Shown one piece after another: positions 28,845-49,439 of a stretch of DNA of 64,000 nucleotides. This stretch comes from Pseudomonadota bacterium (GTDB lineage Bacteria > Pseudomonadota > Alphaproteobacteria > SP197). Location: the NCBI GenBank assembly GCA_039028155.1, contig JBCCIS010000003.1:25904-89903 (forward strand), read 5' to 3'. Made by a program: the position numbers and the translations under genes. How positions within the stretch are numbered: the stretch's first letter is position 1; each line of letters opens with the position of its first letter. Below the pieces are notes generated by a model that did no database searches, had not been told where the DNA came from, and was given only the letters and a program-made list of their open reading frames with translations.

Positions 28845-29597
28845 CTAGATAACCACCGGGAACAGCAGGCAGAGGTAACAGGAAAGCGCCAGGGCGGGCC
28901 CGAAGGGAAAGACGCGGCCACGCCCGGCACCGCGCCAGAGAAGCGCCAGGACGATGCCGGCCAGGCCGCCCAACACGAGAAACGCCGGGATCAGCGGCAA
29001 GCCGATCCATAAGCCCGCCACCGCCATCAGCTTGACGTCGCCGAGGCCCAGGCCCTCGCGAGCGCGGAACCGGCGGTAGACCCAGCGCAACGCCATACCA
29101 GCGCCGCCCAGGACAAGTGCCGCGGCAAGGCCCATGGCGCCCGCGCCAATTGGATCGCCCAGCGCCACCCACCAACCCGGCGCCAGAACGACGGCCGCGA
29201 TCTGCAGGGGATCCGGCAGGTAGCCGTGCTCCAGGTCGATCACCGCCATCATGATCAGGATAAGACCGAGCGCCGCCAGCATGGGGAACGCGGGTACGAG
29301 ACCATAATCGAGCCAAGCGGCCAGAAAGGCGATCGCCGTCGTGATCTCGATGGCGATATAGCGCAGGCCGATCGCCGCGCCGCAGTGGCGGCAGTGACCG
29401 CGCGACGACAACCAGGACAAAACCGGAACAAGATCCCGGACCGAAAGCGGCGCCCCACAGGACGAACATCGTGAACGCTGTTCACGAAAGCTCTCGCCGC
29501 GCGGCAGCCGATGGGTCAACATGGTTGCGAAACTGCCAAAAACTAGCCCTAAAAGGGTAATCAATACCCCTTCCGAGAGTGCCCCGAGCACGGTCAT
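28845..29597 (-). CDS. pilD: Type IV prepilin leader peptidase (A24 family, PilD/GspO-like)
   Basis: N-terminal Zn-binding CSSCG...CRHCG tetracysteine domain, then the A24 peptidase membrane domain. Start at the internal ATG (MTVLGALSEGVL). Confidence 0.8.
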   Translation of the reverse strand: MTVLGALSEGVLITLLGLVFGSFATMLTHRLPRGESFREQRSRCSSCGAPLSVRDLVPVLSWLSSRGHCRHCGAAIGLRYIAIEITTAIAFLAAWLDYGLVPAFPMLAALGLILIMMAVIDLEHGYLPDPLQIAAVVLAPGWWVALGDPIGAGAMGLAAALVLGGAGMALRWVYRRFRAREGLGLGDVKLMAVAGLWIGLPLIPAFLVLGGLAGIVLALLWRGAGRGRVFPFGPALALSCYLCLLFPVVI

Positions 29598-29724
29598 CGC
29601 TCGGCCGTATGGCTGGCCGGCGTGGCGAAAATGCATCGCCCGACAACAGAAAGAATCAAGAGTCCCAACGGTTTGGTTCCAAATCCTTAAGTTCTAATGT
29701 ATATGGAATCGGTAACGGATTGTA

Positions 29725-31476
29725 TTGGGGTTCGGGGTGGTGTCGTTCAGAACGGATACCTACACCAAGTCACTGCCGCGCGCACGGTTGGCGCTGGCGG
29801 CGATCGCGGTTGCGTCGCTTCTGATCGCCTCGTGCGACAAACCGCTGGGCGACTTTCACGATCCCGAAGCCGGCCTCACCAAGGCCGATTACGAAGACAT
29901 TATTGGCACCTCGGCGACCCCGCCGGACGCCAGCGGCGCGTTGGCGCCGGAAGCGCCGCCGATCCCGGATCTGATGCCGGCCCTGGCCGTACCGGTGCCA
30001 GCGACGGGTCCGGAAAGCCGGCTCGTCTCGATCTCCGTCGTCGACACGGTGCCGATCCGCGACGTGCTGATCGAGCTGGCCCGCGCCGCCGAGGTCGACC
30101 TGGAACTCGATCCCGCGATCGAAGGCGGCATCATCTTCAGTGCCCAGAACCGACCGTTCATCGAGGTCATCGACCGCATCTCGGCCATGGCCAACCTGCG
30201 CTACGAATACAAGGGCGGTATCCTGAGGATCGAGATCGACCGGCCCTATCACGCGACCTACAAGGTCGAGCATCTGGCCGCCGCGCGCAGCGCAACGAGT
30301 TCGGTCGATATCTTCACCGACGTCTTCTCCTCGGTCGGCGACAACGCGATCAGCAACGGCTCTGCCGCCCGCATCGAGCAGGTCACAGAGAACGACTTCT
30401 ATGGCGAACTGGCGACCAACGTGCGCCAGATCCTGACCAATTCCTCGCCAGCCGAAGAAATCGAGGAAATCCAGCTTGCTTCGGTCCAACCGACCCTGGA
30501 CGGCGAGGGCGAGGAAGTGACCGACGCGGTCGCCGAGCCGGTCGAGGACTTCTCCATCAATCGCCAAAGCGGGCTGCTCTCCGTCTTCGCGACCCAGCGC
30601 CAGCACCGCCTGGTGCAGGACTACCTGCGCGAGCTGATCATCCGCTCGTCGTCCCAGATCGTGGTCGAGGCCAAGGTGTTGGAAGTCCAGCTGAGCGATC
30701 AGTTCCGCAGCGGCGTCGACTGGAGCGTGGTGGTCGGCATGCTGGGCGGCCAGGCGGGTTTCCTGTTGAACACCGGCCTTGCCAACATCCCCAACAATTC
30801 GCCGGATCTGGCTCAACTCAGCTTTGTTGGCGGCGATGTCGACGCGGTCGTCAACCTGATCAGCGAGTTCGGCACCACGCGCACGCTCGCCAATCCGCGC
30901 CTATCGATCACCAACAACGAGCCGGCGGTTCTGAAGGTCGCCCAGAACCAGGTCTATTTCACCCTGGAGTTCGAAACCAACACGACCCAGGGCGTCGTGA
31001 CCGAGACGGTCGAAAGCACGGTCAACACGGTGCCGATCGGTCTGGTCATGCTGGTGCAGCCGTCGATCGATCTGGACACCGACCGCGTGACGCTGAGTTT
31101 GCGCCCGACACTGTCCAACATTGTCGAATTCGTTGACGATCCCGCGGTCTCGATCGAATCCAACAACACGGTTGTCTCGCAGGTCCCGGTGGTCGAGGTA
31201 CGCGAGTTCGACTCCATCGTCACGGCGCGATCGGGCGAGGTCATCATCCTGGGCGGCCTGATGCAGGAGACCGCGCAGAACAACGAGGCCGGCCTGCCCG
31301 GCTTCCAGGACATCCCGTGGGTCGGCAACGCCTTCAAGTCGAATGACGACGATCGCGAGGTCCGCGAACTCGTCATCTTCCTGCGCGCGACCATCGTGCC
31401 CCAGCCGGTGCCGGCGCCTGCGGATATCGATCTCTACAACACCTTCGCCATCGACCCGCGACCGCTCACATTCTAG
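29725..31476 (+). CDS. Type II/IV secretion system secretin (GspD/PilQ/MshL-like), lipoprotein
   Basis: C-terminal secretin domain (VTARSGEVIILGGLMQET...LPGFQDIPWVGNAFKS...LVIFLRATIV) and N-terminal N0/N1-like domains. Lipobox LLIASC near the N-terminus. First codon TTG; GTG alternatives at 29737 and 29740. Confidence 0.8.
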   Translation: MGFGVVSFRTDTYTKSLPRARLALAAIAVASLLIASCDKPLGDFHDPEAGLTKADYEDIIGTSATPPDASGALAPEAPPIPDLMPALAVPVPATGPESRLVSISVVDTVPIRDVLIELARAAEVDLELDPAIEGGIIFSAQNRPFIEVIDRISAMANLRYEYKGGILRIEIDRPYHATYKVEHLAAARSATSSVDIFTDVFSSVGDNAISNGSAARIEQVTENDFYGELATNVRQILTNSSPAEEIEEIQLASVQPTLDGEGEEVTDAVAEPVEDFSINRQSGLLSVFATQRQHRLVQDYLRELIIRSSSQIVVEAKVLEVQLSDQFRSGVDWSVVVGMLGGQAGFLLNTGLANIPNNSPDLAQLSFVGGDVDAVVNLISEFGTTRTLANPRLSITNNEPAVLKVAQNQVYFTLEFETNTTQGVVTETVESTVNTVPIGLVMLVQPSIDLDTDRVTLSLRPTLSNIVEFVDDPAVSIESNNTVVSQVPVVEVREFDSIVTARSGEVIILGGLMQETAQNNEAGLPGFQDIPWVGNAFKSNDDDREVRELVIFLRATIVPQPVPAPADIDLYNTFAIDPRPLTF

Positions 31477-31567
31477 GATCGCGGCCGTTCGTCGGCGGAC
31501 TTGTCTGGGGTTGGGCAAGCGGCGGGTTTAGGGCGCTCGGGTTAAAGGGGAAGTTGGGTCTTAAGCC

Positions 31568-32335
31568 TTGGTTACGACGTTCCGCTATATCGTGCTGACA
31601 GCCGTGCGCGACCGGTTGCTGATCGGTGTGGCGGTCGCGCTCGTCTTGGCGGCCCTGCTTGGCGCTTTCCTGGGCGACGCGACGGCGCTGGAACAGGGCC
31701 AGATGTCGCTGGCCTATGCCGGTTTCATGACGCGGCTGATCCTGGCCATGGGCCTGATCCTTTTTGTCTGTTTTCACGTGCAGCGCAGCTACGATAACCG
31801 CGAAATCGATCTTATGCTGTCGCGGCCGATCTCGCGTGCCCAGTTCGTCATCATCTACTGGCTCGGCTTTTCCGGCGTCGCTGTGCTGCTGGCGCTGCTC
31901 GCGACCGTCGTGCTGCCGATTGCCGCGTTGCCACAAGGCGCCGGCCTTCTTCTGTGGATGATCAGCCTGATGTTGGAGTCCCTGCTGGTCGTCGCGGTCA
32001 GCCTCTTCTTCGCGCTGACGCTGAAGAGCGCGGTCGCCTCGGTGATGGCGAGTTTCGGTTTCTATCTCCTGGCGCGCATGACCGGCCTGTTGGTCAACAT
32101 CGCCGAGGCCGACTGGTCCATCTTGCAAGAGACCACGCTCGGCGCGTTCATCGGCTATGCCGTCTATGTGTTCGGCTTCATCATGCCGCGGCTCGACCTG
32201 TTCGGCCAGACCTGGTGGCTCAACTATGGCATGCCGGCCGAGCTGCCGGCCGGCCTGATTGTCGCGCAGGCGGCGATCTATACGGCGCTGCTGCTGGCCG
32301 CGACGATTTTCGACTTCCGGCGGCGGCGGTTCTGA
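31568..32335 (+). CDS. ABC-2 type transporter permease-like membrane protein
   Basis: Six predicted TM helices and the ABC-2 signature-like segment NREIDLMLSRPISRAQFVIIYWLG. TTG start, no ATG until residue 46. Its TGA is directly adjacent to the next ATG (TGATGG). Confidence 0.55.
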   Translation: MVTTFRYIVLTAVRDRLLIGVAVALVLAALLGAFLGDATALEQGQMSLAYAGFMTRLILAMGLILFVCFHVQRSYDNREIDLMLSRPISRAQFVIIYWLGFSGVAVLLALLATVVLPIAALPQGAGLLLWMISLMLESLLVVAVSLFFALTLKSAVASVMASFGFYLLARMTGLLVNIAEADWSILQETTLGAFIGYAVYVFGFIMPRLDLFGQTWWLNYGMPAELPAGLIVAQAAIYTALLLAATIFDFRRRRF

Positions 32336-33066
32336 TGGCCGGCCAACGCCTGACGCTCGCCCTCATCGCGCTGCTGCTGGCCGCGCAGGTGGCGCTCGCG
32401 ACCCAGACCATCGCGCGCCACGACATCGACGACACGCTCGCCATGCCGCCACCACGCGAGGTCGCGAGCGTGCTTGCGCTGGGCGACGACCAGTTCTTTT
32501 TCCGTCATGGCGTCTTGGAGATCACCCATGCCGGCGTCGCCGACGGCGACACCATCTATCTGCGCGATTTCGACTATGACGTGCTGGTCGCCTGGCTGTT
32601 CCTGCTCGACGAGCTCGACCCGCGTTCCGGCGCCGTGCCCTTCTTGGCGGCCTACTGGTATGGCCGCACGCCAGTGGTCGCCGATGCCGCCTTGATCGTC
32701 GACTATCTGGAAGCCCGCGCGCTCGCCGACCCGGAAACCGGTTGGCGGTGGCTGGTCGAGGCGGTTTATCTGGCGCGCTACCGGCTTAACGATCTTGACC
32801 GCGCGCTGGCGCTCGCCGAGCTCGCGGCCGACGGCAAAATCGAGAATGCGCCGTTCTACGTGCAGCATCTGCCGGCCTTCATCCAGCTCGATCTCGGCGA
32901 ACGCGACGCCGCGCTCGTGCTGCTGCGCGCGCTCTTGGAAGAGAACCCAGATCTGCCGGAAGACGAGCTCAATCTGTTATTCTTCATGATCGACCGGATC
33001 GAACGCGACGGGGGTGACGGCATGACCGAGCCCGGCGCCGCATCCGGCGAAACGGACGGAACATGA
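32336..33066 (+). CDS. Secreted all-helical (TPR-like) hypothetical protein
   Basis: ATG immediately after the upstream stop. Signal peptide MAGQRLTLALIALLLAAQVALA. The track merges it into a 370-aa read-through ORF. Confidence 0.6.
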
Positions 33067-34163
33067 ACGACATTACACTCTCGCTCTCGCAGATCCTGCA
33101 GCTCGTCGGCGTGGTGCAATGCGTTTACGTCATCGCGCTGACGCTGGTCCGCACCGACGATTACCGTTTCGCCGCCCTGCCGGTCATGCTGTTCGCCGCG
33201 ATCGCCGTCGGTTTCGGCGTCCAGCTATTGATGACCTTGACGGAGATCGGCGAAAGCCCGTTCTTGAACGGCGTCTATCTGTTCGTAGAAACGGCGGTGC
33301 CGCCCTTGATGTACCTGATGGTCATCGAGTTGGCGAAGCGGCGCATTCCCGCCTCGCCCCATTGGCTGATCCTGGGCCTGCCGCTGCTGGCGGTGCCGGC
33401 GATCAATGTCGCCGTCCAGGCCGAGACCATCTGCCTGGGCGCCGATGGCAGCTTCTGCGTCGAGCCCTACCCGATGTTCTCGCTGTTCCGGGTTATCGCC
33501 GGCGTCGCCATTCTGCTGTTGCTGGTCGCGGTGATCTCGCGCGATCTCAAGTCGCTCCTGACCCAGAGCATGGGCAAGGAGAAGTACTGGATCGTCATCG
33601 CGTTGATCGGCGCCATCATCTCGTTGCTGGCGGTGAACCTGTTGAGCGCCTTCGAGGTGCTGAACGAGAGCGAGGCGGTGTTCGTCACGACCGTCCTGGA
33701 ACTGACGCTGATCTACCTGCTGATCTCATCCCTGTTCCGGGTCTATGGCGGCGCCGTCACGATCCGCACCAGCCGTGACAAGGGGCGTGACGGCGAGCGT
33801 GAACCGCTCAACGACGAGGAAATCAAGCTGGTCGAGCGCATCAACGAGCTGATGACCCTGGACAAGGTCTATCAGGAGGCCTCCTACAGCCGCAAAGATC
33901 TGGCCCAGGAGCTCGCCATCGCCGAACACCAGCTGTCGCGGATCATCAACACCGGCTTCGCCATGAGCTTCAGCGACCTCATCAACAACCATCGGGTCGA
34001 GGAAGCGAAGTACCTGCTGCGCACCACCGACGAGCCGGTCAGCTCGATCGCCTTTGATGTCGGCTTCAACAGCCTGGCCTCGTTCAACCGCGTGTTTCGC
34101 AAGGTGACCGATCAGACGCCGACCGCGTTTCGCCAGAACGGCGGCGAGGCGCCGAGCCAATAG
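33063..34163 (+). CDS. Membrane-integrated AraC-family transcriptional regulator (N-terminal polytopic membrane domain + C-terminal AraC HTH)
   Basis: About 230 aa with six or seven hydrophobic helices, then a classic AraC HTH (YSRKDLAQELAIAEHQLSRIINTGFAMSFSDLINNHRVEEAKYLLRTTDEPVSSIAFDVGFNSLASFNRVFRK). ATGA overlap with the upstream gene. Confidence 0.75.
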   Translation: MNDITLSLSQILQLVGVVQCVYVIALTLVRTDDYRFAALPVMLFAAIAVGFGVQLLMTLTEIGESPFLNGVYLFVETAVPPLMYLMVIELAKRRIPASPHWLILGLPLLAVPAINVAVQAETICLGADGSFCVEPYPMFSLFRVIAGVAILLLLVAVISRDLKSLLTQSMGKEKYWIVIALIGAIISLLAVNLLSAFEVLNESEAVFVTTVLELTLIYLLISSLFRVYGGAVTIRTSRDKGRDGEREPLNDEEIKLVERINELMTLDKVYQEASYSRKDLAQELAIAEHQLSRIINTGFAMSFSDLINNHRVEEAKYLLRTTDEPVSSIAFDVGFNSLASFNRVFRKVTDQTPTAFRQNGGEAPSQ

Positions 34164-34522: not shown

Positions 34523-35185
34523 ATGCAGGGTAACGTGGGTAACGACAGACACAGCTCCGAACGCGGCTTTACGCTGGTCGAGCTTTCCATCGTTCTTGTC
34601 ATCATCGGGCTTTTGATCGGCGCCGTCCTGAAGGGCCAGGAGTTGATCGAAAGCGCGCGGCTGAAGTCGCTGATGACGCAGATGAACAGCTACAAGACGG
34701 CGACCCAGATCTTCAAGGATCGTTATGGCTCGCTGCCCGGCGATTTCGACGAGGCGACGACCGTGCTGAACGCCTCGGCCAACGGCGACGGCGACGGCCT
34801 GATCGACGGCAACGGTGGCAACGGCGAAGGCCCGCTGTTTTTCGAGCATTTGGTTCGCGCTGAGCTGATCTCCGGTGTTTCGGTCAACGATCCCATCCCC
34901 GACAGCAAAGCCGGCAACGGCGAAGTCCAGGCCGACAACGACGACGTCAACCAGGGCTCGCAGGACACCAACTTCTTCCGCGCCGGCGGCCTGAACGGCG
35001 TCGCCAGCACCCGCGATATCCTGAGCGGCGCCCAGGCGGGCGAGCTGGACAACAATTTCGACGACGGCAGCGGTATCACGGGCGATATCCAGTCCGAGGG
35101 CGGCAATGACTGCCGCACCAATGCCGGCGTCCACAACTTCACCGATGGCGACGTCGCCTGCGTCTTCTTCGTGAAAATCGAATAG
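34523..35185 (+). CDS. Type IV prepilin / pseudopilin (class III signal peptide)
   Basis: MQGNVGNDRHSSERG|FTLVELSIVLVIIGLLIGAV is a prepilin peptidase cleavage motif (G/FTLxE) followed by a hydrophobic N-methylation helix. Gly/Asp-rich C-terminus with a Cys pair. RBS GAGGAT. Confidence 0.8.
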   Translation: MQGNVGNDRHSSERGFTLVELSIVLVIIGLLIGAVLKGQELIESARLKSLMTQMNSYKTATQIFKDRYGSLPGDFDEATTVLNASANGDGDGLIDGNGGNGEGPLFFEHLVRAELISGVSVNDPIPDSKAGNGEVQADNDDVNQGSQDTNFFRAGGLNGVASTRDILSGAQAGELDNNFDDGSGITGDIQSEGGNDCRTNAGVHNFTDGDVACVFFVKIE

Positions 35186-35235
35186 ACCGCACGACCATGG
35201 CGGATGACGGGCCAGCCGGCCCGAGCTGATCACCG

Positions 35236-35543: not shown

Positions 35544-36920
35544 GTGAGCATCCTCTACAAGGCATTGTCGAAAGCCGCGCGCGAGAACGCCGAGCAGGCG
35601 GATGGCGCGCCCCTGGTGCTCGGCAACGACCTCGGCGACGACCCCGGAACCGCCTTCGACGACGCGACCTACCGCGAGCCGCGCCGGCGCCCCTGGGCGC
35701 TGCTGGGTGTGGCCGGCCTCGTTGTCGTGGCCTGCATCGGCGGCTACGTCTATTTGACCTCGCTGGAAGATGACGATGTCGTGGTTAACACCGGTGGCGA
35801 GATTGTCGATTTCTCCAAGCAGAACCAGGCTGCGGCCGGGGCCGACGAACCCGACGTCATTGCGGCTGATCCGTCGAACGAGACGTCAGACGACGCTCTT
35901 GTCGAAACGGTCGAGGTGGTCGAAGTCGTCGAAACCGCCGATACCGTCGAGCCGGTCGAACTCGCCGAACCGGATGTGACGACCGAAACCCAGACGTCGA
36001 CCGCGCTCGATATCGTTCCGGCCGCCTCGCTGGATGTCGTCAACGGCAGCGGGACCGCGACCGACGTCGCCGAAATCAGCGAAACGGCGGAAACGACGAC
36101 GAGCGAGAACGCCGGCGACGTAACCGCGGCAGTCAATGGCGAGACCATCGAGGAGACGCTGGCACGCCTCAGCAACGAACGCGGCGGCGACGACCTCACC
36201 ACGCCCATCGACGTCGACCGCACGCCCGAAGCGGCCATGGAAGCTGCGACCACCGGCGACGGCGCCATCACCGTGTCGTCCGTAGAGACGGCGGCCACCG
36301 AAACCACCCCCGAAACCACAGTCGAGTTCACCATCGATGCGGAGGGCTCCGGCAACCGGCAGAAGTTCGAGGCGGCCTATGCCGCGCTTCAAGCGGGCAA
36401 CGCGGAAGCCGCCATGGATCTCTACATGGATGTCTTGCGGGAAGAGCCGGACAACCAGTTCGCCCTCTTCGGCCTGGCTTCCACCCTGCAGCGCATGGGC
36501 TGGTTGGGCGAGGCGCGCGCGACCTATGAGGAGCTCTTGGCGATCGACCCGAACAATCGCGGCGCGCTGACCAACATGATGGCCCTGATCGCCCAGGAGG
36601 CGCCCGACCAGGCACTGGCGAACCTGCAGCGGCTCTATGAGATCAATCCGGGGTTCAGTCCGATCCCCGCCCAGATCGGCCTGCTCTACGCCGACATGGG
36701 CGACTATGGCGAGGCGGTGCGCAATCTGAGTCTCGCCATCGACATGGAGCCGGACAACATGAACTACGTCTACAACCTCGCGATCATTCACGACCGGCTC
36801 GGCCAGCACACCGAGGCGCAGGCGCTCTACGAGCAGGTGATCGAGTTTGCCCAGTATCGCGATGTCAGCGTGCCCGTTGCCGCCATCCGCGAGCGCGTGT
36901 CCTACCTGAAACGATTGTAA
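35544..36920 (+). CDS. TPR-repeat pilus biogenesis protein (MshN/PilF-like) with N-terminal membrane anchor and acidic low-complexity spacer
   Basis: GTG start. TM helice WALLGVAGLVVVACIGGYVYL. A long acidic spacer rich in Glu, Thr, Ala and Val. C-terminal TPR repeats (...AAMDLYMDVLREEPDNQFALFGLASTLQRMGWLGEARATYEELLAIDPNN...). Confidence 0.65.
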   Translation: MSILYKALSKAARENAEQADGAPLVLGNDLGDDPGTAFDDATYREPRRRPWALLGVAGLVVVACIGGYVYLTSLEDDDVVVNTGGEIVDFSKQNQAAAGADEPDVIAADPSNETSDDALVETVEVVEVVETADTVEPVELAEPDVTTETQTSTALDIVPAASLDVVNGSGTATDVAEISETAETTTSENAGDVTAAVNGETIEETLARLSNERGGDDLTTPIDVDRTPEAAMEAATTGDGAITVSSVETAATETTPETTVEFTIDAEGSGNRQKFEAAYAALQAGNAEAAMDLYMDVLREEPDNQFALFGLASTLQRMGWLGEARATYEELLAIDPNNRGALTNMMALIAQEAPDQALANLQRLYEINPGFSPIPAQIGLLYADMGDYGEAVRNLSLAIDMEPDNMNYVYNLAIIHDRLGQHTEAQALYEQVIEFAQYRDVSVPVAAIRERVSYLKRL

Positions 36921-36934
36921 GCGGAGATCAGGCG

Positions 36935-37801: not shown

Positions 37802-37803
37802 TC

Positions 37804-39738: not shown

Positions 39739-39782
39739 GATGCGTCGCCCTAGAGCCTTAACGGCTCGGCTAGCATCACCGG

Positions 39783-39843
39783 CCCGCTCCCCCGCCCGGC
39801 CACCCATGGCAGCATCCTAGGGGTGGCCGGGCGGGGGAGCGGG
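39783..39843. terminator. Perfect 23-bp GC-rich inverted repeat (hairpin) between the pilus-assembly operon and the ABC ATPase gene
   Basis: CCCGCTCCCCCGCCCGGCCACCC - 15-nt loop - GGGTGGCCGGGCGGGGGAGCGGG. The two arms are exact reverse complements. Confidence 0.5.
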
Positions 39844-41308: not shown

Positions 41309-42873
41309 GACGCCGCCTCGCTCACCTCGATCTCAGGCAGGATAATGCTGATGACGGCGGCGAAGCCGGTGTCGCCGTCCTCCAGCGGATCGCCCAATGC
41401 GACCTGACCGATCAAGTTCTGGTTCGGCAGGATATCGACCGGCGGATCGGTCACGCGCACGTCGAAACCCGGCATGATTTCGGCCATGCGCTCGGCCAGC
41501 GCGTCGGTCACGACAACGGCGTCTTCCATGTCGCCTATGGTGCTGTCCAAATGCACCGTTACCGCCAAGCGGATATCGCGCAGGCCGGCCTCTTCCTCGA
41601 TGACCCAATCGACTTCGTGCACCACGATGTCCGGGCCCAAGGTCGGCCCGATCAAGGCCAGGAACGGCAGGGGTGACGGCGCATGGGTCGACAGCCGGTC
41701 ATAGGTAGCAACGGTGTCGGCGACTTCGGGTGCGGAAACCAGGAAGCTCGCGGCGAGCTTGCCGGTCGCTTCCAGTTCGGCTTCGCGCTCTGTCGCCACC
41801 AACGCGATGTCGCGATGGGCCCGGTCGACTTCCTGGGATTCGACATAGGCCTCGGAAAGACCGAACGTCGCGTAGCCGACGATCAGCGCGATGAAGACGT
41901 AGGCCGCGCGCGTCGTCAGCGCACCCGCGCGTTTTTCGTAAAGCTCCTCGGGCAGCAGCGACAGAACCGGACGTCGTTTCTGTGCGAACACCGCGCCGTG
42001 CAGCACCTCGCCATAGCTATCATCGGGCTCGGCGACGCCCGCAAGCCTCAGCCTTTCGGCCGCATCATGCGGTGTCACCATGCGCAGATGCGACGGCGAC
42101 ATGCCGAGATTAAGCAACTCCTGGCCGATCTCCGGCGTTCCCGCGACGATAATGTCCAGGCCCTGATCGTCGCTATAGGACATGCGCCTCAGATAGCCCA
42201 TGCTCAGCTTGTATTCGCGCTCGATGGTCTGGGCGACTTCGCTGGCGCTGGCATCCGCCGGCGCGCTTTGCGTCAGGCGCGTGAAGACGAACTCGTCGCC
42301 GCGAATGACCACCTGACGGAAACCGCCGGTGCGGTGGCGCGTCACCAGCATGACCCATTGGGGCCGGCTGCCGCGCCGATGAAACAGGTTGGAGAGATTG
42401 CGCGCCAGCGACACCGCTTCCAGTGGCAACAGCGAGAACGGCTTGACCGGGTTGGGCGCCTGATTGATCCAGTCGATCCAGCCGTCAAGCGCCGGTGAGG
42501 CAGGCAAACCGGCCAACAGATAGCGGCGGTCGCGCCGCTCGCCATCCTGGCGGCCCAGGTAGTGCGCGGCCTTTATCTTCGCTTCCGAAAACGCCGTCGC
42601 CAGCCTGCGCTGCAACATGCCGGCGGCGTCGAACATCGAAACCGGCGGAATCGATTCCTTGGCAAACGACTGCTCGAGGACGTCGATCAGCGGGTACACC
42701 GGCGTCGACGGCGAGTCCTTCAGCATCTCCAGCATCTGCGCGCTGTCGCCGGGATCGCTGGTCGGCGCGAAACAGCGGTCGCGCACCCGCGCTCCTGTCA
42801 CGCGCAGCAGCACCGCGCCCTCATCGCCGATGACCAGGACGAACTTGTTCGACGTGCCGAACGAGAAGTTCAT
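41305..42873 (-). CDS. PilM-PilN fusion-type pilus assembly protein (MshI-like)
   Basis: N-terminal actin-like PilM start (FSFGTSNKFVLVIGDEGAVLL). A central TM (AAYVFIALIVGYATFGL) followed by a PilN-like periplasmic region. 522 aa, comparable to MshI. Confidence 0.6.
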   Translation of the reverse strand: MNFSFGTSNKFVLVIGDEGAVLLRVTGARVRDRCFAPTSDPGDSAQMLEMLKDSPSTPVYPLIDVLEQSFAKESIPPVSMFDAAGMLQRRLATAFSEAKIKAAHYLGRQDGERRDRRYLLAGLPASPALDGWIDWINQAPNPVKPFSLLPLEAVSLARNLSNLFHRRGSRPQWVMLVTRHRTGGFRQVVIRGDEFVFTRLTQSAPADASASEVAQTIEREYKLSMGYLRRMSYSDDQGLDIIVAGTPEIGQELLNLGMSPSHLRMVTPHDAAERLRLAGVAEPDDSYGEVLHGAVFAQKRRPVLSLLPEELYEKRAGALTTRAAYVFIALIVGYATFGLSEAYVESQEVDRAHRDIALVATEREAELEATGKLAASFLVSAPEVADTVATYDRLSTHAPSPLPFLALIGPTLGPDIVVHEVDWVIEEEAGLRDIRLAVTVHLDSTIGDMEDAVVVTDALAERMAEIMPGFDVRVTDPPVDILPNQNLIGQVALGDPLEDGDTGFAAVISIILPEIEVSEAAS

Positions 42874-42935: not shown

Positions 42936-44147
42936 CTAGAAGCCCATATTGCCGAAGTTGTCGTAGATCGGGCCCAGCACGCCCAGCACGACCCACAAGA
43001 CGATACCGCCGATGGCGATGGTCAGCGCCGGCTCGATCGAGCTGATCATCGACGTCACGGCATTATCGACCTCGCGGTCATAGAAGTAACCGATGTTCTC
43101 CAGCGCTTCATTCAGCTTGCCGGACTCTTCGCCAATCTTGAACATGCGCACCACCAGATGCGGAAACTGGCCGGTCGCCTCCAGGGCCGCCGACAGCGAC
43201 GTACCGCTCTGCACGTTTTGGCGCGCCATGCTGAGCGATTCCGCCAGCATCTTGTTGGCGACGACACGGCGTCCGGTATCGATGCAGTTCAGAACGTCGA
43301 TGCCGCTTTGGAATGTCAGGGCGAAGAAGTGGGCGAAGCGCGCCAGCGCCAGCTTCTTCAAGACCGGGCCGACGCCTGGAATACGGAACTTCATGGCGTC
43401 GAACCAATAGGAGAAACCCTCGAAGAAACGCAGCAGAAAGGTGACGGTCAAGAAACCGATGACCGGCACGGCAAGCACGACCCACCAGTAGGAAGCGAAG
43501 AAGTTCGACGTCGCGATCAACGCGCGGGTCATGAACGGCAGCTCGCCGGACGTCGAGATCAGGAATTCCGACACCTGCGGTACGACGAACACCATCATCA
43601 TGAAGATGACGCCGAAAACCATGATCATCATGAACATGGGATAACGCGTCGCCTTCTTGATCTTCGACGTCATCTCGCCTTGCCACTTCAGGTGGTCGGC
43701 CAGATGGCCGAACGCGTTGGAGAGATTGCCGCTCTGTTCACCGGCGGCGACAACACCGGTGAAGACCGCGTTGAAGACCTTCGGGTGCACCTCCAGCGCG
43801 CGGCTCAGATACATGCCGTCGCTGACGTTCCGAACGACTTCCGACAGGATATCTTGCAGGCGCCCGGAATCGGTCGCCTCGCGCACATCGTTCAGCGCAT
43901 CCAGCAACGGCACGCCGGCGCGGTCCAGTTGCTGCAGATGAATGCACATCTGCACCATGTCGTCGTTGGTGATTTTCTTCTGCAGAAAGGTCGAGACCTT
44001 GCTCTGGCGCACCTCGCCATGGCGGATCAGGTCCAGACCCATGACGCGAAGGTTCGACTCAAGGTCCATGACGTTGACCGCGTTCAACGTGCCCGTGACG
44101 TTGCGGCCGCTCTGGTTCATGGCGCGGTACTTGTAGAGCGGCATCAA
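42936..44147 (-). CDS. Type IV pilus/T2SS inner-membrane platform protein (PilC/GspF/MshG family)
   Basis: Two T2SSF repeats and a conserved C-terminus (...IEPALTIAIGGIVLWVVLGVLGPIYD...). 4-bp overlap with the upstream ATPase gene. Confidence 0.85.
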   Translation of the reverse strand: MMPLYKYRAMNQSGRNVTGTLNAVNVMDLESNLRVMGLDLIRHGEVRQSKVSTFLQKKITNDDMVQMCIHLQQLDRAGVPLLDALNDVREATDSGRLQDILSEVVRNVSDGMYLSRALEVHPKVFNAVFTGVVAAGEQSGNLSNAFGHLADHLKWQGEMTSKIKKATRYPMFMMIMVFGVIFMMMVFVVPQVSEFLISTSGELPFMTRALIATSNFFASYWWVVLAVPVIGFLTVTFLLRFFEGFSYWFDAMKFRIPGVGPVLKKLALARFAHFFALTFQSGIDVLNCIDTGRRVVANKMLAESLSMARQNVQSGTSLSAALEATGQFPHLVVRMFKIGEESGKLNEALENIGYFYDREVDNAVTSMISSIEPALTIAIGGIVLWVVLGVLGPIYDNFGNMGF

Positions 44148-46210
44148 AACAGCCTGTCGGTCATGTTGATGTGGCGCACCAGCTCGGCGACGCTGGTCTC
44201 GCCCGCCAGCACCTTCGCGATGCCGTCATCGCCCATGGTCTTGAAGCCGTGCTTGCGCGCGCACGACAGAAGCTCGACGCGCGAGGCCTCACGGGCGACC
44301 AGTTCATCCATCTCATCGTTGAAGCCCAGAATCTCGACCGCCGCCACGCGGCCGCGGTATCCCCGGTTGTCGCAGGCCTCGCAACCGACGGGATGCCAGA
44401 TCTCCGGCTTTTCGGCGGGGTCGATGCCCAGCACCTGACATTCGTCCTCGGTAGCCGGGCGCGCCTCCTTGCAGGCGTCACACAGGCGGCGCACCAGGCG
44501 CTGGGCCAGGATGCCGATGACGTGGCCGGCCAGCATGGACGGGTTGAGTTTCAGATCGACCAGACGGGGAATGGCGCCCAGCGCATCGTTGGTGTGCAGC
44601 GTCGTATAGACCTGATGGCCGGTCATGGCCGCGCGCAACGCCATGGTCGCGGTGTCTTCGTCGCGCACCTCGCCGATGAAGACGATATCGGGGTCCTGGC
44701 GCAGAATAGAGCGCACGCCCTCGCCGAACGACATGCCGGCGGCCTCGCGGATATGCGACTGGCGGATCAGCGGCAGCTCGTACTCGACCGGGTCTTCAAG
44801 GGTCATGATATTGACCTCGACCGAGTTGATCTTCTCCAGCATGGCGTAAAGCGTCGTCGTCTTACCCGAACCGGTCGGGCCGGTGATGACGATGATGCCT
44901 TCCGGCCGCTTCAAGAGCGTGCCCATGACCCGCGTGTTGTGCTGGCTGAAGCCGAGCTCGTCCAACGGCTTCAACGACTTGGATTTGTCGAGCACGCGGA
45001 TAACGATGTTCTCGCCGTGCACGGTCGGGTGCGACGCCACACGGAAGTCAACCTCCCGGCCGCCGACATGGATGCTCATGCGCCCGTCCTGCGGGTTGCG
45101 CGTATCGGCGATGTTCATGCCGGAGATGATCTTGATGCGCACCGAGATCGCCGGCCAATAGTCCTTATGGAAGGTGCGCACCTGGGTCAGGATGCCATCG
45201 ACGCGATAGCGCAGACGCACGAACACGCCTTCCGGTTCGAAATGCATGTCGGACGCGCCGACCTTCACCGAGTCCATGATGATCGCGTTGACCAGGCGCA
45301 CCGTCGGGTTGACGTAGCCGTCCTCGGTGGTCAGCGCCTGAATGTCGACAACGCCGGTCTCGATCTCGCGCAGAATGCCGTCGATCGACATTTCGTAGCC
45401 GTAGAGCCGGTCGATCGCCTCGGTCAGGTCCTGTTCGGATGTCAGCAGCGGCAGGATTTCGATATCGCGCGGGAAACAGCGGCGCAGCTGGTCAAGCGCC
45501 AGGACGTCATAGGGATCCGACATCGCCGCCTGCAGCACATCGTCGACCATGGCGACGGGCAGGACCGCGTACTTCGACGCAATGTCCTTAGGCACCTGTT
45601 TGATCAGGTCGGCGTCGAACATGGCGGTCGCGGGGTCGAACTGTTCCAGCCCGGTCGATTCCGCCAACACTTCCGACAGCGCCGACTGGGTGATGAAGCC
45701 CAGATCGACAAATACTTCGCCCAGGAGCTTGTCGCCGCGCTTGCGCTCGCGCATGGCAACGTCGAGTTGGTCCTGCGAGATCAGGCCGAGTTCGCGCAGC
45801 CGCTCGCCCAGGCGCATCTGCTTGACCTGCCCGGTCTGGGGCGCGCCCGCCGGACGCGTCGGCGCGTCGGCCACGCCCCTATCCGCCAACGCCGCCAGAT
45901 CGGGCATCGGCGGCATGGCCGGCGTCTCCGGCGCCGCCGGTGCCGCCGACGCTGTCGTGGCATCCTCGATCGTCTCGGCTGCCGTGTCGCTGGCAGGAGC
46001 GGCCGCACCGGTATCGTCGACGCGAATTTCGAAGCTGGGTTTGGGTGCTGAGACCGGTGCCGCGTCCTCATCCAATGCTGGTTCGGACCGTGCCGGTGGC
46101 GGCGGTGGTGGCGGGGCGTCCGCGCGAACTTGGGCGCCGGCCCCCTTGGCGAGGTCCGCTGCCATGGTCAACGGTTTGCCCGACCTGCCGGGCTTGCCGA
46201 ATACCGCCAT
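44144..46210 (-). CDS. GspE/PilB/MshE-family assembly ATPase with MshEN-type N-terminal domain and a ~150-aa Pro/Ala-rich N-terminal extension
   Basis: Walker A GPTGSGKTTT. Asp and His boxes. C-terminal tetracysteine CDAC...CEAC. An N-terminal T2SSE_N/MshEN-like segment (LGEVFVDLGFITQSALSEVL...). Residues 1-150 are low-complexity (PPPPPPPA...). Strong RBS GGTGAGGA before the ATG. Confidence 0.85.
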   Translation of the reverse strand: MAVFGKPGRSGKPLTMAADLAKGAGAQVRADAPPPPPPPARSEPALDEDAAPVSAPKPSFEIRVDDTGAAAPASDTAAETIEDATTASAAPAAPETPAMPPMPDLAALADRGVADAPTRPAGAPQTGQVKQMRLGERLRELGLISQDQLDVAMRERKRGDKLLGEVFVDLGFITQSALSEVLAESTGLEQFDPATAMFDADLIKQVPKDIASKYAVLPVAMVDDVLQAAMSDPYDVLALDQLRRCFPRDIEILPLLTSEQDLTEAIDRLYGYEMSIDGILREIETGVVDIQALTTEDGYVNPTVRLVNAIIMDSVKVGASDMHFEPEGVFVRLRYRVDGILTQVRTFHKDYWPAISVRIKIISGMNIADTRNPQDGRMSIHVGGREVDFRVASHPTVHGENIVIRVLDKSKSLKPLDELGFSQHNTRVMGTLLKRPEGIIVITGPTGSGKTTTLYAMLEKINSVEVNIMTLEDPVEYELPLIRQSHIREAAGMSFGEGVRSILRQDPDIVFIGEVRDEDTATMALRAAMTGHQVYTTLHTNDALGAIPRLVDLKLNPSMLAGHVIGILAQRLVRRLCDACKEARPATEDECQVLGIDPAEKPEIWHPVGCEACDNRGYRGRVAAVEILGFNDEMDELVAREASRVELLSCARKHGFKTMGDDGIAKVLAGETSVAELVRHINMTDRLF

Positions 46211-46398
46211 TCCTCACCTCTAGCGCCTGATGGATGCTGTCGGCCGACCCCTCGGCACAAGACAACAGAACGTCACCGGTCTCCCGTGGCGTTTTCAGGC
46301 GTCCCCAACTGCTTTCTTCCCGCGTATTTTAGTACACAAGCTGTTAGATTCATATTCAGATAATGCTCAACCCGTCCTATAAGTCGGATTAATGTGAA

Positions 46399-46480
46399 CT
46401 GTGTTTATGACGCACAATCAAGCCGGTCTGTGGCGACCGTCACAACTATATCCGTCGTTCTCTTGATTTGATAAACACAG
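46399..46480. promoter_or_regulatory. 10-bp inverted repeat CTGTGTTTAT ... ATAAACACAG (62-bp spacing) in the AT-rich divergent promoter region between the mshE-like operon and pilin gene 2
   Basis: Seen directly in the 290-bp intergenic region, which is markedly AT-richer than the flanks. Confidence 0.35.
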
Positions 46481-46503
46481 TGGATTAGCGGCACTGGCCA
46501 AAT

Positions 46504-47259
46504 ATGACGTCTGATTCAACACAGAATCCGTTCCAATCGACCGAAAAGGGCTTCACCCTGATCGAAATGGCGATTGTGATCGCCATTATCGGCGTTTTGG
46601 TCGCCATGTTGGCGCCGATGCTGGGCAATATCGCGGAAAACAACCGAACGGAACTGACCGTTCAGCGCATGGACCAAATCGAGAACGCCATGGTCGTTTT
46701 CCTGCGCCAGAACGGCCGCCTGCCATGTCCGGCCGCCCCCAACGGCGCGCCCCTAGGCGATGAACGCGCCAGCTGCAACACCGGCAACAACAACGACGGT
46801 ATCGTGCCGTTCCGCAGTCTTGGGCTGGCCGAGGCCGACGTGCGCGACGGCTACGGCAACTATTACACCTATCATGTCGCCGAGGACTACGCCGACAGCA
46901 GTTTGCCCACGGTGATGACCGATCCCGGCGGCTTCTGTTTCGTCGCCTCCGGCGAGCCGAACGGCGATCTGGATATCGAAGACATCAACGGCACCAACGT
47001 GACCGGCCAGGACATCGCCTTCACGCTGATCAGCCATGGCAAGAACGGTTATGGCCGATACGACCCGCCGGGCAACGGCAAGGTCAACGCCAATGGCGGC
47101 GGCACCTTCGAGGACGAGAACAACGATTCCGACGCCGACTTCGTCGACGGCATCCGTCTAACCGACGATGCGACGGACGGCCCGCTCGATGACGCGGTCA
47201 TCTGGAAAACGCGCGACGGGCTGGCCGGCCAGGCCATTGAGTTCGGCTGTTCGCCGTAG
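46504..47259 (+). CDS. Type IV prepilin (class III signal; large 251-aa pilin, candidate major subunit)
   Basis: MTSDSTQNPFQSTEKG|FTLIEMAIVIAIIGVLVAMLAP is a leader plus N-methyl-Phe helix. C-terminal Cys pair (C...GCSP). Confidence 0.8.
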   Translation: MTSDSTQNPFQSTEKGFTLIEMAIVIAIIGVLVAMLAPMLGNIAENNRTELTVQRMDQIENAMVVFLRQNGRLPCPAAPNGAPLGDERASCNTGNNNDGIVPFRSLGLAEADVRDGYGNYYTYHVAEDYADSSLPTVMTDPGGFCFVASGEPNGDLDIEDINGTNVTGQDIAFTLISHGKNGYGRYDPPGNGKVNANGGGTFEDENNDSDADFVDGIRLTDDATDGPLDDAVIWKTRDGLAGQAIEFGCSP

Positions 47260-47379
47260 CCATAACTAGGCTTACTGAACCCACAACTTGCCAGTGCTCG
47301 AACTCAACCATAGGGTGTTGGGCAAGAGTTGCGGAGTCTACCCTTCGCTACGTTGAAGACAGCATTACGATATCATCTC

Positions 47380-47892
47380 ATGGAAACACCAGAGTTCAAC
47401 CTAAAGAACCGTGTCGCGCCGTTAGGGCGTTGGTATGAACACTTGGTCTATTTCTTTATCGCGAGTTTTTTCTTTGCTGTTTGGACATACTGGGTCGCCG
47501 GAAAATACCATCCATACTATGTACTAGATACTTTGGGGCATGCCGTTTGGTCGCTTCTAGCTTTCTATTTATCCAATAAAATCTTACTAATCGTTTATCG
47601 ACACTTAAACTTTGCAATCGCTTTCTGTGCATACTACATTATCGCGCTTATCATATTTGTTACGATAAGCGTATCAATTATAGCGATGAGGTCTCTGGAA
47701 GGAAACGAAGCGCTAAAATTTGACGGAATATGGATCTATCACTATGGGTTTATTACTTGGGAAGGTTTCATATGGGAGGTCAAGTACTTCTCAAGAAACT
47801 TCATTCCGCTGTTTTTGGCAAACCTAGCTTCAATCTTACTGCTACGATTAATCTACAAACTTCTAAGTTGCCGATTTGTACGCGGTGGGTAG
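47380..47892 (+). CDS. Hypothetical polytopic membrane protein encoded in an AT-rich (~42% GC) island
   Basis: The ORF (TTG at 47329, first ATG at 47380) encodes four or five hydrophobic helices. It is rich in Phe, Tyr, Ile and Lys, with AT-rich codons unlike the host genome. Confidence 0.5.
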   Translation: METPEFNLKNRVAPLGRWYEHLVYFFIASFFFAVWTYWVAGKYHPYYVLDTLGHAVWSLLAFYLSNKILLIVYRHLNFAIAFCAYYIIALIIFVTISVSIIAMRSLEGNEALKFDGIWIYHYGFITWEGFIWEVKYFSRNFIPLFLANLASILLLRLIYKLLSCRFVRGG

Positions 47893-47962
47893 TGGCTTAA
47901 GCACTCTCCGACGCCAGTGCATCAACATGTACAGACGACCTCTTTCAACCCGATCTTCTTCG

Positions 47963-48013
47963 AACTCGTGACGACCTAGCCGGCCTGGCGATCGAGTTCG
48001 GCTGTTCGCCCTA
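47963..48013 (+). repeat. Imperfect direct repeat of the last ~17 codons of pilin gene 2 (relic 3' end), bounding the AT-rich insert
   Basis: CGTGACGACCTAGCCGGCCTGGCGATCGAGTTCGGCTGTTCGCCCTAG matches ACGCGCGACGGGCTGGCCGGCCAGGCCATTGAGTTCGGCTGTTCGCCGTAG at 47208-47259 (about 38/45 identities over the central alignable 45 nt). The two translate as RDDLAGLAIEFGCSP* and RDGLAGQAIEFGCSP*. Confidence 0.6.
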
Positions 48014-48026
48014 GGGTAGGCCGGCT

Positions 48027-49439
48027 CTAGACCGCGTTCGTCCCTTCGTTCCAGCTTTGCAGCTTGCGGTAGACGGTCGACGGACTGATCTCCAGCAGCG
48101 CGGCGGCGCGTGGCACGTTGCCCTCGCTTAGACGCAGAGCTGCTTCGATCGCCTCGCGTTCGACCTCGTGCAGCGGACGGATATCGACGTCCGTCAAATC
48201 ACCAGGTGCGGCATCGGCCCTGCGTTTGCGCAAGGGATCGTTGGCCGGCTGCGGCAGCCCGGCCGAGCCGTCCAGTGGAGGCGGCAGCATCTCGCGCGTC
48301 ACGACCTCGCCGGTGTTCAAGACTACCACGTTACGGATGATGTTCTGCAATTCCCTGACATTGCCCGGCCATGAATAGGCACGGAAGAGATCGCGCACGC
48401 TGGCGTCCAACCGCGCGAACGGTTTGCTTTCCTGGCGCGCGAACTCACGCAGGAAGTTTTCGGCAATGTCGATGACGTCGTCGTCACGCCGGTTGAGCGG
48501 CGGCAGGTGAATCGGAATGACATGCAGGCGGTAATAGAGGTCGGCGCGGAACCGGCCGCTCTCGACCTCCTTCAAGGGATTGCGGTTGGTCGCGCAGACA
48601 AAACGCACATCGACCCGCTCCGACCGGCTTGAGCCGACCTGCTGGAACGTTCCGGTTTGCACGAAACGCAACAGCTTGGCCTGCAGCGCCGGCGCCATGT
48701 CGCAGATCTCGTCCAGGAACAGCGTGCCGCCATCGGTCAAGGTCGCCGCGCCGTCGCGATTGGAAACCGCGCCCGTAAACGCGCCTTTCACATGGCCGAA
48801 CAGCTCGCTCTCCAGAAGGTCGCGCGGTATTGCCGCGCAATTGAGCGCCATGAACGGCCCGTCGGAGCGCTCACTTAGATGGTGAATCGCCTCGGCGCAC
48901 AGCTCCTTGCCGGTGCCGCTCTCACCGGTAATGAAGATCGATGCCTGACTGGGCGCGGCGCTTTGAATGGTCGCGTAGACGCTTTGCATCTCCATCGACG
49001 AACCGATGAAGCCGGCGAAGGAGCTGTGTCGTGTCTCGCTCGTCATGCCGTCGACCAGACGCTGCAGTTCGCGCCGCTCCAGCGCGTTGCGCAACGTGAC
49101 GATCAGGCGTTCTTGGCTGAACGGTTTGACCAGGAAATCGTACGCGCCGTCGCGCATCGCCTCGACCGCCGCGCTGACCGAGCCGTGGGCGGTGATGATG
49201 ACGACGGGGCACGGCAACTGGCGTTGCTTGATCCAGCGCAAGATTTCCAAGCCATCGATGTCGGGCAGTCTGAGATCGAGAAGGACCGCGTCCGGCGCCT
49301 GTTTGTCGATTGACGAAAACGCCGCCTCGCCGGTTTCGACGTGTTCAACGGAGACGGGCTCGAAGCGCAAGTACTCCTTGTAGACACGCGCCAAGGGTGG
49401 CGTGTCTTCGACCAGAAGCACTGTCTGCTGACGGTTCAT
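48027..49439 (-). CDS. Sigma-54-dependent response regulator (NtrC/PilR family: REC + AAA+ + Fis HTH)
   Basis: Receiver domain ([14 protein letters not shown]...[16 protein letters not shown]). GESGTGKE Walker A. The GAFTGA sigma54-contact motif. C-terminal HTH. RBS GGAGG before the ATG at 49439. Confidence 0.9.

Follow-up and report, generated by a model that had tools for sequence, protein, structure and literature searches.

A probable retractile type IV pilus machine with an ABC transporter module, found mainly in uncultured Alphaproteobacteria

Alphaproteobacteria are usually treated as Tad-pilus organisms. MSH systems, i.e. those of the MSHA pilus type, have been recorded from Gamma- and Epsilonproteobacteria and Chrysiogenetes only; their loci have no prepilin peptidase, pilT is not in the model, mshM is mandatory and the system is encoded at a single locus (Denise et al. 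2019, PMC6668835). PilT is also characteristically absent from type II secretion systems (T2SS) (Denise et al. 2019, PMC6668835). In Myxococcus xanthus, whose PilA is a large pilin (PMC11046646), pilG/H/I mutants are non-piliated, and PilGHI is described as essential for pilin translocation across the inner membrane (PMC3724824; PMC6060248). Here we analyze a gene cluster spanning positions 28845-49439 of a 64,000-nt stretch (referred to below as the window) of contig JBCCIS010000003.1. The region is probably one complete retractile type IV pilus machine with an ABC transporter module as an integral part; its lineage would be a distinct one, seen mostly in uncultured Alphaproteobacteria. The analysis covers genes, profiles and predicted folds.

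The window is ~63% G+C, its coding frames are distinguished by a third-position G+C content (GC3) of 0.77-0.89, and the nearest genomes are alphaproteobacterial metagenome-assembled genomes (MAGs) with 95% and 91% identity. Gene calls were checked against Pfam and NCBIfam hidden Markov models (HMMs) with curated cutoffs, while folds were predicted using AlphaFold2 and compared using Foldseek. Related loci are labelled L001 and so on. The initial annotation had described an MSHA/T2SS-like type IV pilus cluster. The type IV filament cluster is indeed complete and has MSH-like parts, and each of the listed pilus genes is found at its place, but the filing under MSHA fails (see below). In addition, four embedded genes had been omitted (31568-32335, 32335-33066, 33063-34163 and 38974-39807), and a 755-bp low-GC insertion (47260-48014) that interrupts the cluster had been overlooked. 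Domain HMMs, which had been proposed as the check on that reading, recover T2SSE/MshEN and Secretin but give no match at all for the 522-aa fusion protein. The genes are as follows:

28845-29636, minus strand: prepilin peptidase of the PilD/GspO type (Pfam A24_N_bact 9.9e-28, Peptidase_A24 1.7e-13)
29725-31476, plus strand: lipoprotein secretin, MshL/GspD-like (Pfam Secretin 3.6e-32)
31568-32335, plus strand: ABC-2-type permease with 5-6 transmembrane (TM) helices (weak Pfam ABC2_membrane_4 match, 0.0033; TM scan)
32335-33066, plus strand: 243-aa TPR-like periplasmic protein with a signal or anchor (weak TPR_14 in relatives; TM scan)
33063-34163, plus strand: membrane AraC-family regulator with seven predicted TM segments and a C-terminal helix-turn-helix (HTH) domain (Pfam HTH_18 1.9e-21, HTH_AraC)
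34523-35185, plus strand: prepilin 1 (Pfam N_methyl 4.3e-07; TIGR02532)
35544-36920, plus strand: bitopic TPR protein, MshN-like (Pfam TPR_19/8/2 and others)
36935-37801, plus strand: cytoplasmic AAA_22 ATPase of the ExeA/GspA/MshM type (Pfam AAA_22 3.6e-24)
37804-38961, plus strand: PilT retraction ATPase (TIGR01420, 460.8 bits against a cutoff of 319.1)
38974-39807, minus strand: ABC ATP-binding protein of the DrrA/NodI/GldA-like ABC-2 subfamily (Pfam ABC_tran 1.9e-24)
39876-40631, minus strand: 251-aa protein in the PilP/GspC/MshK position, with a signal or anchor (position; weak GspB-domain profile match)
40616-41308, minus strand: 230-aa bitopic PilO/GspM-like protein (AlphaFold2 model and Foldseek)
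41305-42873, minus strand: 522-aa PilM-PilN fusion of GspL-like architecture, as supported by AlphaFold2 model, Foldseek and family profiles
42936-44147, minus strand: inner-membrane platform, PilC/GspF/MshG (Pfam T2SSF twice, 8.2e-52)
44144-46210, minus strand: extension ATPase of the PilB/MshE type (Pfam T2SSE 9e-119, MshEN 5.8e-19)
46504-47259, plus strand: prepilin 2 (Pfam N_methyl 3.1e-07; TIGR02532)
48027-49439, minus strand: orphan NtrC-family response regulator (REC-sigma54 AAA-HTH_8), closest to LuxO (Pfam Response_reg, Sigma54_activat, AAA_lid_14, HTH_8)

The peptidase gene is divergent from the secretin gene. The permease gene is the first one 3′ of the secretin gene, and is followed by the genes for the 243-aa protein and the AraC regulator. 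On the opposite strand, the pilB-pilC-pilMN-pilO-pilP operon ends with the ABC ATPase gene, which is convergent with pilT, while the prepilin 2 gene is divergent from this operon. Stop and start codons overlap at 32335, 33063-33066 (4 bp), 44144-44147, 41305-41308 and 40616-40631.

The ABC module, which the initial annotation overlooked, is the most distinctive conserved feature of the cluster. Its ATPase scores 133 bits against the drrA subfamily model of NCBIfam and 115 bits against GldA; its true start is probably an internal Met at ~39738, and the long form is missing from the protein collection. The 243-aa protein matches no family at default thresholds, has a single N-terminal TM or signal segment, and belongs to a family in which weak TPR_14 matches occur in 7 of 9 members; it always accompanies the permease. 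One genome per species was scanned, giving 67 loci, all of them from MAGs except that of strain LM-1, and all window proteins were compared with these loci by tblastn. Of these loci, 56 are labelled Alphaproteobacteria (27 unclassified, 14 Rickettsiales, 10 Rhodospirillales/Rhodospirillaceae, 4 Azospirillum/Azospirillaceae and 1 Hyphomicrobiales), 8 are unclassified Pseudomonadota and 3 are other. Fusion-protein identity across the deep comparison is 25-45%, and the outer flanks differ between loci. In 41 of the 48 loci with enough downstream sequence, the pilP-position gene is directly followed by a co-oriented ABC ATPase gene, and the PilT and TPR genes are found just beyond it in convergent orientation in 27 of 45. 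Of the 12 loci with a visible secretin, 9 have the permease and the 243-aa protein after it; the three that do not have this pair (L050, L067 and L069) also do not have the ABC ATPase, i.e. the co-variation is perfect.

ABC-2 transporters are a common, generic type, the only models matched by the ATPase are those of subfamilies (drrA, nodI, gldA), and seven of the 48 loci have no such ATPase. The ABC genes, together with the AraC and LuxO-like genes, might thus be unrelated passengers lodged between pilus operons. We consider this improbable for the group as a whole, since the position and strand of the ATPase gene are kept in 41 of 48 loci at 25-35% fusion-protein identity and between differing flanks, the permease and 243-aa genes accompany the secretin gene and disappear along with that of the ATPase (9/9 vs. 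0/3), and the permease, TPR-like and AraC genes are coupled by start/stop overlaps. Only for the LuxO-like gene, which is linked to the cluster in close relatives alone, is the passenger reading favoured. The linkage of the ABC genes at this level of divergence, along with the joint loss of the three parts, argues that the three-part ABC-2 transporter belongs to the pilus machine, as far as gene order can tell. To our knowledge, PilG/H/I of M. xanthus is the only precedent for an ABC module linked to a pilus.

In folds and motifs, the gene products make up a complete apparatus for extension and retraction. The extension ATPase has an MshEN domain at residues 187-275 and a core with a Walker A motif at 444 and a tetracysteine motif. 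Among NCBIfam models it scores highest with GspE (502 bits, cutoff 630), followed by PilB TIGR02538 (486.5 bits, cutoff 675.65), whereas among solved structures Thermus PilF (411 bits) and M. xanthus PilB (390 bits) come before GspE (349 bits), with Geobacter PilB also near. NCBI (AAF563_025xx) annotates it as a 688-aa ‘GspE/PulE family protein’ with the same start as here. A Pro/Ala-rich N-terminal extension of roughly 150 aa had been noted; the composition holds (42% Ala+Pro), but its length is 132 aa. This tail is found but is poorly conserved in close relatives, and it is missing in L003. In L044 (Rhodospirillaceae bacterium LM-1), the ATPase open reading frame (ORF; 6253-8733) has a Pro/Ala/Gly-rich N-terminal extension of ~290 aa, with four copies of (F/L)(Q/H)LG(D/E/G)(L/M)(I/V)G on the N-terminal side of its MshEN motifs. 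Disordered N-terminal tails therefore recur, in variable form, across the ATPases of the fusion-protein family.

Downstream of its tail, the extension ATPase has tandem motifs at 133-156 and 162-185, separated by the spacer KRGDK. The described MshEN motif consists of two 24-residue RLGxx(LVI)(LVI)xxG(LVI)(LVI)xxxxLxxxLxxQ units with a 5-residue spacer (PMC5013675). The protein passes the cutoff of NF053729, the model of the domain with the cyclic di-GMP (c-di-GMP) motif (55.4 bits, cutoff 38), and its N-domain matches Vibrio cholerae MshE (5HTL) with 61 bits, about equal to PilB. The platform protein scores best with GspF (319 bits, cutoff 424) and then with PilC (266 bits), both under cutoff.

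PilT matches P. aeruginosa PilT (3JVU) with 410 bits and PilU with 249 bits, and its Walker A, AVRNLIRE and His box motifs are all found. As described before, its gene starts directly after the MshM-like gene (37804, following the stop at 37801), and TIGR01420 is passed. The accompanying statement that retraction in MSHA systems is usually considered PilT-independent does not agree with published work, as MSHA retraction in V. cholerae requires PilT (PMC9815625, PMC7096442). A PilT is thus functionally expected even for an MSHA-like pilus, and the only unusual point is the presence of pilT inside the locus.

The 522-aa protein has no match in Pfam or NCBIfam, relaxed Pfam scans of its two halves as fragments give nothing, and NCBI annotates it as ‘hypothetical protein’. 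Its AlphaFold2 model (mean predicted local distance difference test (pLDDT) 81, from a 19-sequence alignment) has an actin-like cytoplasmic domain at residues 1-300, a sole TM segment at 326-344 within a long helix, and a ferredoxin-like periplasmic domain with a twice-repeated alpha-beta-beta unit at its C-terminus. Foldseek places PilM first (5EOU at 4.8e-10, 2YCH, and M. xanthus PilM from 3JC8), ahead of FtsA and of the cytoplasmic domain of GspL, while family profiles match M. xanthus PilN over the TM segment and coiled coil (E 0.002 and 4.4e-4). The predicted fold and these profile matches support the earlier identification of a PilM-PilN fusion, or equivalently of a GspL-like architecture. 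Such a fusion may be the equivalent of MshI as well. The Pfam PilM and PilN models have no matches among 38 diverse family members. A word-indexed search finds 24 relatives and an exhaustive profile search finds 2449 representatives at 50% identity, 757 of them at E<=1e-30.

Its two neighbours were more difficult to place. The 230-aa protein has a TM segment at 18-36, a coiled coil, a domain with two alpha-beta-beta units and an acidic tail. The mean pLDDT of its AlphaFold2 model is 62 (72-87 in the C-domain), and among pilus-related folds this low-confidence model comes closest to PilO in Foldseek, though weakly (2RJZ, E 3.4e-3, TMt 0.52), with the PilO of 3JC8 also matched. Pfam and NCBIfam HMMs give no match for it. 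The family profile finds only coiled-coil noise among PDB sequences, and hhalign against the fusion family aligns just 15 columns, at a shared ‘helix-LPG’ element, with 7% probability. The 251-aa protein has a single conserved beta-rich domain at ~115-195 and no match in Pfam or NCBIfam; its position is conserved among loci at lengths of 160-700 aa, and its family profile matches the periplasmic domain of GspB weakly (4WFW, E=0.0095). Pfam scans of all members of both families find no pilus-family match.

The secretin is closest to MshL among NCBIfam models (TIGR02519, 215.8 bits, cutoff 250.2), followed by GspD (97 bits, cutoff 351) and PilQ TIGR02515 (75.4 bits, cutoff 284). Among PDB sequences GspD is nearest (71 bits) and PilQ gives 38 bits. 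No AMIN domain is found in Pfam scans, while a relaxed Pfam scan of domain fragments gives a sub-threshold Secretin_N_2 match. The lipobox that had been reported is present (LLIAS|C near residue 37), with the Cys kept in all six relatives with complete N-termini, and no pilotin lipoprotein is recognisable in the cluster, again as reported. The 243-aa protein was tried as a pilotin candidate and dropped, as a lipobox is missing and its co-variation is with the ABC genes, not the secretin.

Both prepilins have a G|FTL(V/I)E cleavage site and match N_methyl and TIGR02532, in line with the original count of two. Prepilin 1 has a 15-aa leader (G|FTLVE) and a mature length of ~205 aa, with an acidic, Gly/Asp/Asn-rich globular part and a C-terminal Cys-X17-Cys. 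Prepilin 2 has a 16-aa leader (G|FTLIE), a mature length of ~235 aa and four Cys. The best model match of both N-termini is GspG, restricted to the first 60 residues. In L044, the pilin gene is flanked by genes for lectin-like proteins (with a ‘VEFDT...NHV’ motif) and for a paralogue of pilin 2 that has no cleavage site; the products of these flanking genes may act as tip adhesins.

Several of these matches lean toward a T2SS, i.e. a pseudopilus that exports folded proteins: the GspL-like fused architecture of the 522-aa protein, GspF as the best model for the platform, GspE as the top NCBIfam model for the ATPase (502 vs. 487 bits for PilB), GspD as the nearest secretin in the PDB, and GspG at both prepilin N-termini. 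We nevertheless regard a T2SS as very unlikely. Every Gsp score is below its curated cutoff, a genuine PilT is embedded in the cluster and conserved in the family, neither GspC nor a GspH-K set is found in the window, and the mature pilins of 205-235 aa compare with ~135 aa implied by the GspG model (134 positions).

The TPR protein has a short cytoplasmic N-terminus (‘SILYKALSKA’), a TM segment at 53-71, an acidic Thr/Glu-rich linker and C-terminal TPRs at 270-458. This N-terminus seems to resemble the motif conserved at the N-termini of the GspB/ExeB-type proteins that partner ExeA. The segment (window 35544-35600) SILYKALSKAAREN recurs in the ExeA-like-bearing loci L001, L006 and L008, and similar ones are found in L050, L059 and L064. 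Beside it, the AAA_22 protein has TIGR03015 as its best NCBIfam model (212 bits, below cutoff), and has neither a TM segment nor a peptidoglycan-binding domain. Pfam confirms the described pair of an MshN-like TPR protein and an MshM/ExeA-like AAA_22 protein. A homologue of the latter is found only in 6 of 71 fetched loci, namely: L001, L002, L006, L007, L008 and L011, which form a close clade. The ExeA-ExeB and MshM-MshN pairs probably aid passage through peptidoglycan or secretin assembly. In distant relatives (L044:13624-20839 and L003:13898-17436), the cytoplasmic anchor of the TPR protein is replaced by a signal peptide and a lytic-transglycosylase (SLT)-like N-domain; these two loci have no ExeA-like gene, and a second PilT/PilU-like ATPase follows PilT.

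With MshL as the best curated model of its secretin, an MshM-like AAA_22 gene that adjoins the MshN-like TPR gene, an ATPase whose MshEN N-domain aligns with V. cholerae MshE, and the encoding of all parts at one locus as in MSH systems, the cluster could be orthologous to the MSHA pilus of Vibrio, with its genes in another order. The mandatory mshE ATPase and mshG platform of MSH are both matched, at the superfamily level only (T2SSE plus MshEN, and T2SSF twice). The Vibrio msh locus has a multi-gene pilin set, mshB/A/C/D and others, whereas only two prepilins are found here. The MshL score is under its cutoff, and the MshM-like gene is missing from most family members. The full-length ATPase scores higher against PilB/PilF of type IVa pili (T4aP) than against GspE, while its N-domain is about equally close to PilB and MshE. 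Finally, an ABC module and both a prepilin peptidase and a PilT, the latter conserved in the family, are encoded in the cluster, whereas MSH loci have neither peptidase nor pilT and are reported only from Gamma- and Epsilonproteobacteria and Chrysiogenetes (PMC6668835). Filing the cluster under MSHA is thus not sustained, and we judge orthology to the Vibrio system unlikely.

Taken together, the cluster is a mosaic of a T4aP-like motor pair, an MSH/T2SS-like secretin and fusion protein, MSH-like accessories confined to one clade, and a PilGHI-like ABC module; the equivalog models of PilB, GspE, GspF, GspD, PilQ and MshL all score below their curated cutoffs. The reading that we prefer, of a complete and retractile type IV pilus machine with its own ABC module, has a number of points against it. 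A six-frame motif scan of the 64-kb window finds no prepilins beyond the two, nor does the window encode a minor-pilin set (FimU/PilVWXE) or PilY1, which means that the priming components must lie elsewhere in the genome or be of another kind. The initial annotation's PilO-like and PilP-position assignments agree with bitopic topology and conserved position, but the fold and profile matches behind them are weak (E 3.4e-3 and E 0.0095, respectively), and both identities are weakly supported. The c-di-GMP-binding type of ATPase domain that had been proposed agrees with the tandem motif, the spacer and the NF053729 score, but three of the four polar c-di-GMP contacts of V. cholerae MshE are replaced (Gln by Arg156 at position 24 of motif 1, Arg by Leu162 at position 1 of motif 2 and Gln by Ser185 at position 24 of motif 2). 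In five aligned ATPases, Leu162 is found in all five, Arg156 in four (Lys in L003) and Ser185 in four (Ala in L003). c-di-GMP binding by the extension ATPase is plausible from its motifs. In addition, the ABC ATPase, being absent from seven of the 48 loci, is not universally essential. By gene linkage, PilGHI is the most likely functional analogue of the ABC module. Lastly, the gene content does not discriminate between adhesion, motility, DNA uptake and secretion as the output.

The following model can be proposed. The A24 peptidase would cleave the two large prepilins, and the hexameric PilB/MshE-type ATPase would dock on PilC and on the actin-like domain of the PilM-PilN fusion to drive pilin polymerisation; c-di-GMP might gate this ATPase via its MshEN motifs. 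The fusion, PilO-like and PilP-position proteins would bridge the periplasm to the self-lipidated MshL-like secretin, which, being a lipoprotein, probably needs no separate pilotin to reach the outer membrane. PilT would depolymerise the fibre. The bitopic TPR protein may assist the secretin or passage through the cell wall, here along with the ExeA/MshM-like AAA+ protein and elsewhere as an SLT-like fusion. The ABC-2 transporter, probably an obligate accessory of the machine, may, by analogy with PilGHI, make pilin assembly-competent at the inner membrane, its substrate and step being inferred; it might extract or prime the large pilins there, or serve the lipidated secretin. A bolder proposal, made tentatively, is that these loci form a separate, unclassified class of type IV filaments which is common in uncultured Alphaproteobacteria (many of them Rickettsiales and Rhodospirillales MAGs) and in which the ABC-2 transporter is a mechanistic part of biogenesis. 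No description of this alphaproteobacterial pilus plus ABC system was found in the open-access literature.

Two regulators could act on the cluster. The sigma54-dependent one had been called PilR-like; its best curated family is LuxO (NF041946, 642 bits, with the cutoff of 800 unmet), ahead of NtrC (401 bits), and its gene adjoins the cluster only in the close relatives L001, L002, L005 and L006 (at least 43% identity in the 522-aa protein). The PilR name is therefore not retained. It is an orphan, as stated, with no histidine kinase in scans of the cluster genes and of 10 large ORFs on the flanks. No gene for a histidine phosphotransfer (HPt) protein backs a PilR role either, and Rfam finds no Qrr-type small RNA beside the LuxO-like gene. 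The sigma54 promoters suggested for the pilin genes are not seen: no TGGCAC-N5-TTGC (<=2 mismatches) precedes either gene, and the window has 20 matches to the consensus vs. 27 expected by chance. Scans of the cluster for sigma70 promoters and terminators are at chance level, and neither Rfam (gathering thresholds) nor a tRNA scan finds anything in the entire window. The AraC regulator is kept beside pilin 1 in L001, L002, L004, L026, L027, L044 and L045, i.e. it is conserved with the system more widely than the LuxO-like regulator. The AraC regulator, whose gene is co-transcribed with that of the permease, is the best candidate for a local regulator and the LuxO-like one is weaker, its membership in the pilus system being uncertain. 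Beside the LuxO-like gene are genes for an extracytoplasmic function (ECF) sigma factor (49556-50191), a 99-aa putative anti-sigma factor (50203-50502) and a Metal_resist/Spy-like periplasmic protein (50499-50939). This trio is conserved in L001, which suggests that the LuxO-like regulator may belong to an envelope-stress neighbourhood and not to the pilus.

The 755-bp low-GC insertion lies between the stop codon of the prepilin 2 gene and that of the regulator gene, in a stretch (46-48 kb) of 0.54 GC, compared with ~0.63 around it. Its plus-strand ORF (47329-47892) encodes 187 aa with three TM segments, has a GC3 of 0.46 and matches nothing in Pfam, NCBIfam or PHROG. The insertion is missing in an 89%-identical relative (L001/L006), where only 12 bp separate the prepilin 2 and regulator genes. 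A 52-nt direct repeat of 83% identity (47208-47259 and 47963-48014) flanks the insertion and duplicates the last 17 codons of the prepilin 2 gene, with a stop in frame in the second copy. The arrangement resembles that left by an att-type integration into the pilin gene's 3′ end.

Upstream of the cluster, an uninterrupted 634-aa ORF (16948-18852, minus strand) has TetR_N and TetR_C_6 at residues 19-200 and Rieske and Ring_hydroxyl_A at 270-604; it is either a regulator-oxygenase fusion or the product of a lost stop codon or an assembly error in the MAG. Just upstream of the cluster, two genes on the minus strand (26424-26732 and 27878-28105) encode paralogous small membrane proteins that have in common the motif LPFFWVLKKMGR.P.WG.L..VP..N.V..WV.AFWRWPS. 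In L004, two small ORFs (60 and 70 aa) are found at a similar position near the cupin and peptidase genes.

These results point to a PilT-equipped, single-locus pilus machine that is common in uncultured alphaproteobacterial lineages. The fusion-protein family (2449 representatives) can serve as a marker for finding such systems, as standard domain libraries miss the fusion protein. In terms of annotation, PilT is not foreign to MSHA-like pili. The linkage and co-loss of the ABC trio support a functional requirement for such a transporter, hitherto based on Myxococcus genetics alone. If the transporter is indeed a mechanistic part of pilus biogenesis, the present family would provide a second, independent and genetically simpler system for the 25-year-old question of what a PilGHI-type transporter does. 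The magnetotactic strain LM-1 (Rhodospirillaceae bacterium) is a culturable carrier in which it can be tested.

In comparison with known systems, the cluster encodes, like the T4aP of P. aeruginosa and M. xanthus, a PilB-type ATPase, a true PilT (with an AIRNLIRE-type motif), a PilC platform, a PilD peptidase and a secretin, as well as a predicted PilM fold, a PilN-like segment and a PilO-like fold. Unlike in T4aP, PilM and PilN are apparently fused and are undetected by the PilM and PilN models, the secretin is a short MshL/GspD-type liposecretin, the window has no minor-pilin/PilY1 set, the whole system is at one locus, and ExeA/MshM-like and bitopic TPR accessories are present. It resembles the MSHA pilus of V. 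cholerae in its MshL-like secretin, MshM- and MshN-like neighbours, MshEN ATPase, putatively equivalent PilM/N-type fusion and single locus; it differs in its peptidase, pilT, ABC transporter, just two prepilins and alphaproteobacterial hosts, and in that most members of the family do not have the MshM-like gene. The actin-like, TM and ferredoxin-like parts on one polypeptide recall GspL of the GspL-GspM and GspA-GspB proteins of T2SS, as do the pairing of an AAA_22 ATPase with a bitopic partner (ExeA-ExeB) and the weak GspB-domain match of the PilP-position protein, whereas a PilT, the lack of GspC and GspH-K, and an AAA_22 protein without TM or peptidoglycan-binding domain set the cluster apart. 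Finally, PilG-PilH-PilI of M. xanthus are likewise encoded inside a type IV pilus cluster and comprise an ABC ATPase, an ABC-2-type permease and a third component that is not an ABC protein, and in both cases the pilins are unusually large (205-235 aa mature here). The host class is a different one, and the genes are split here, with the ATPase in the motor/alignment operon and the permease and its partner with the secretin.

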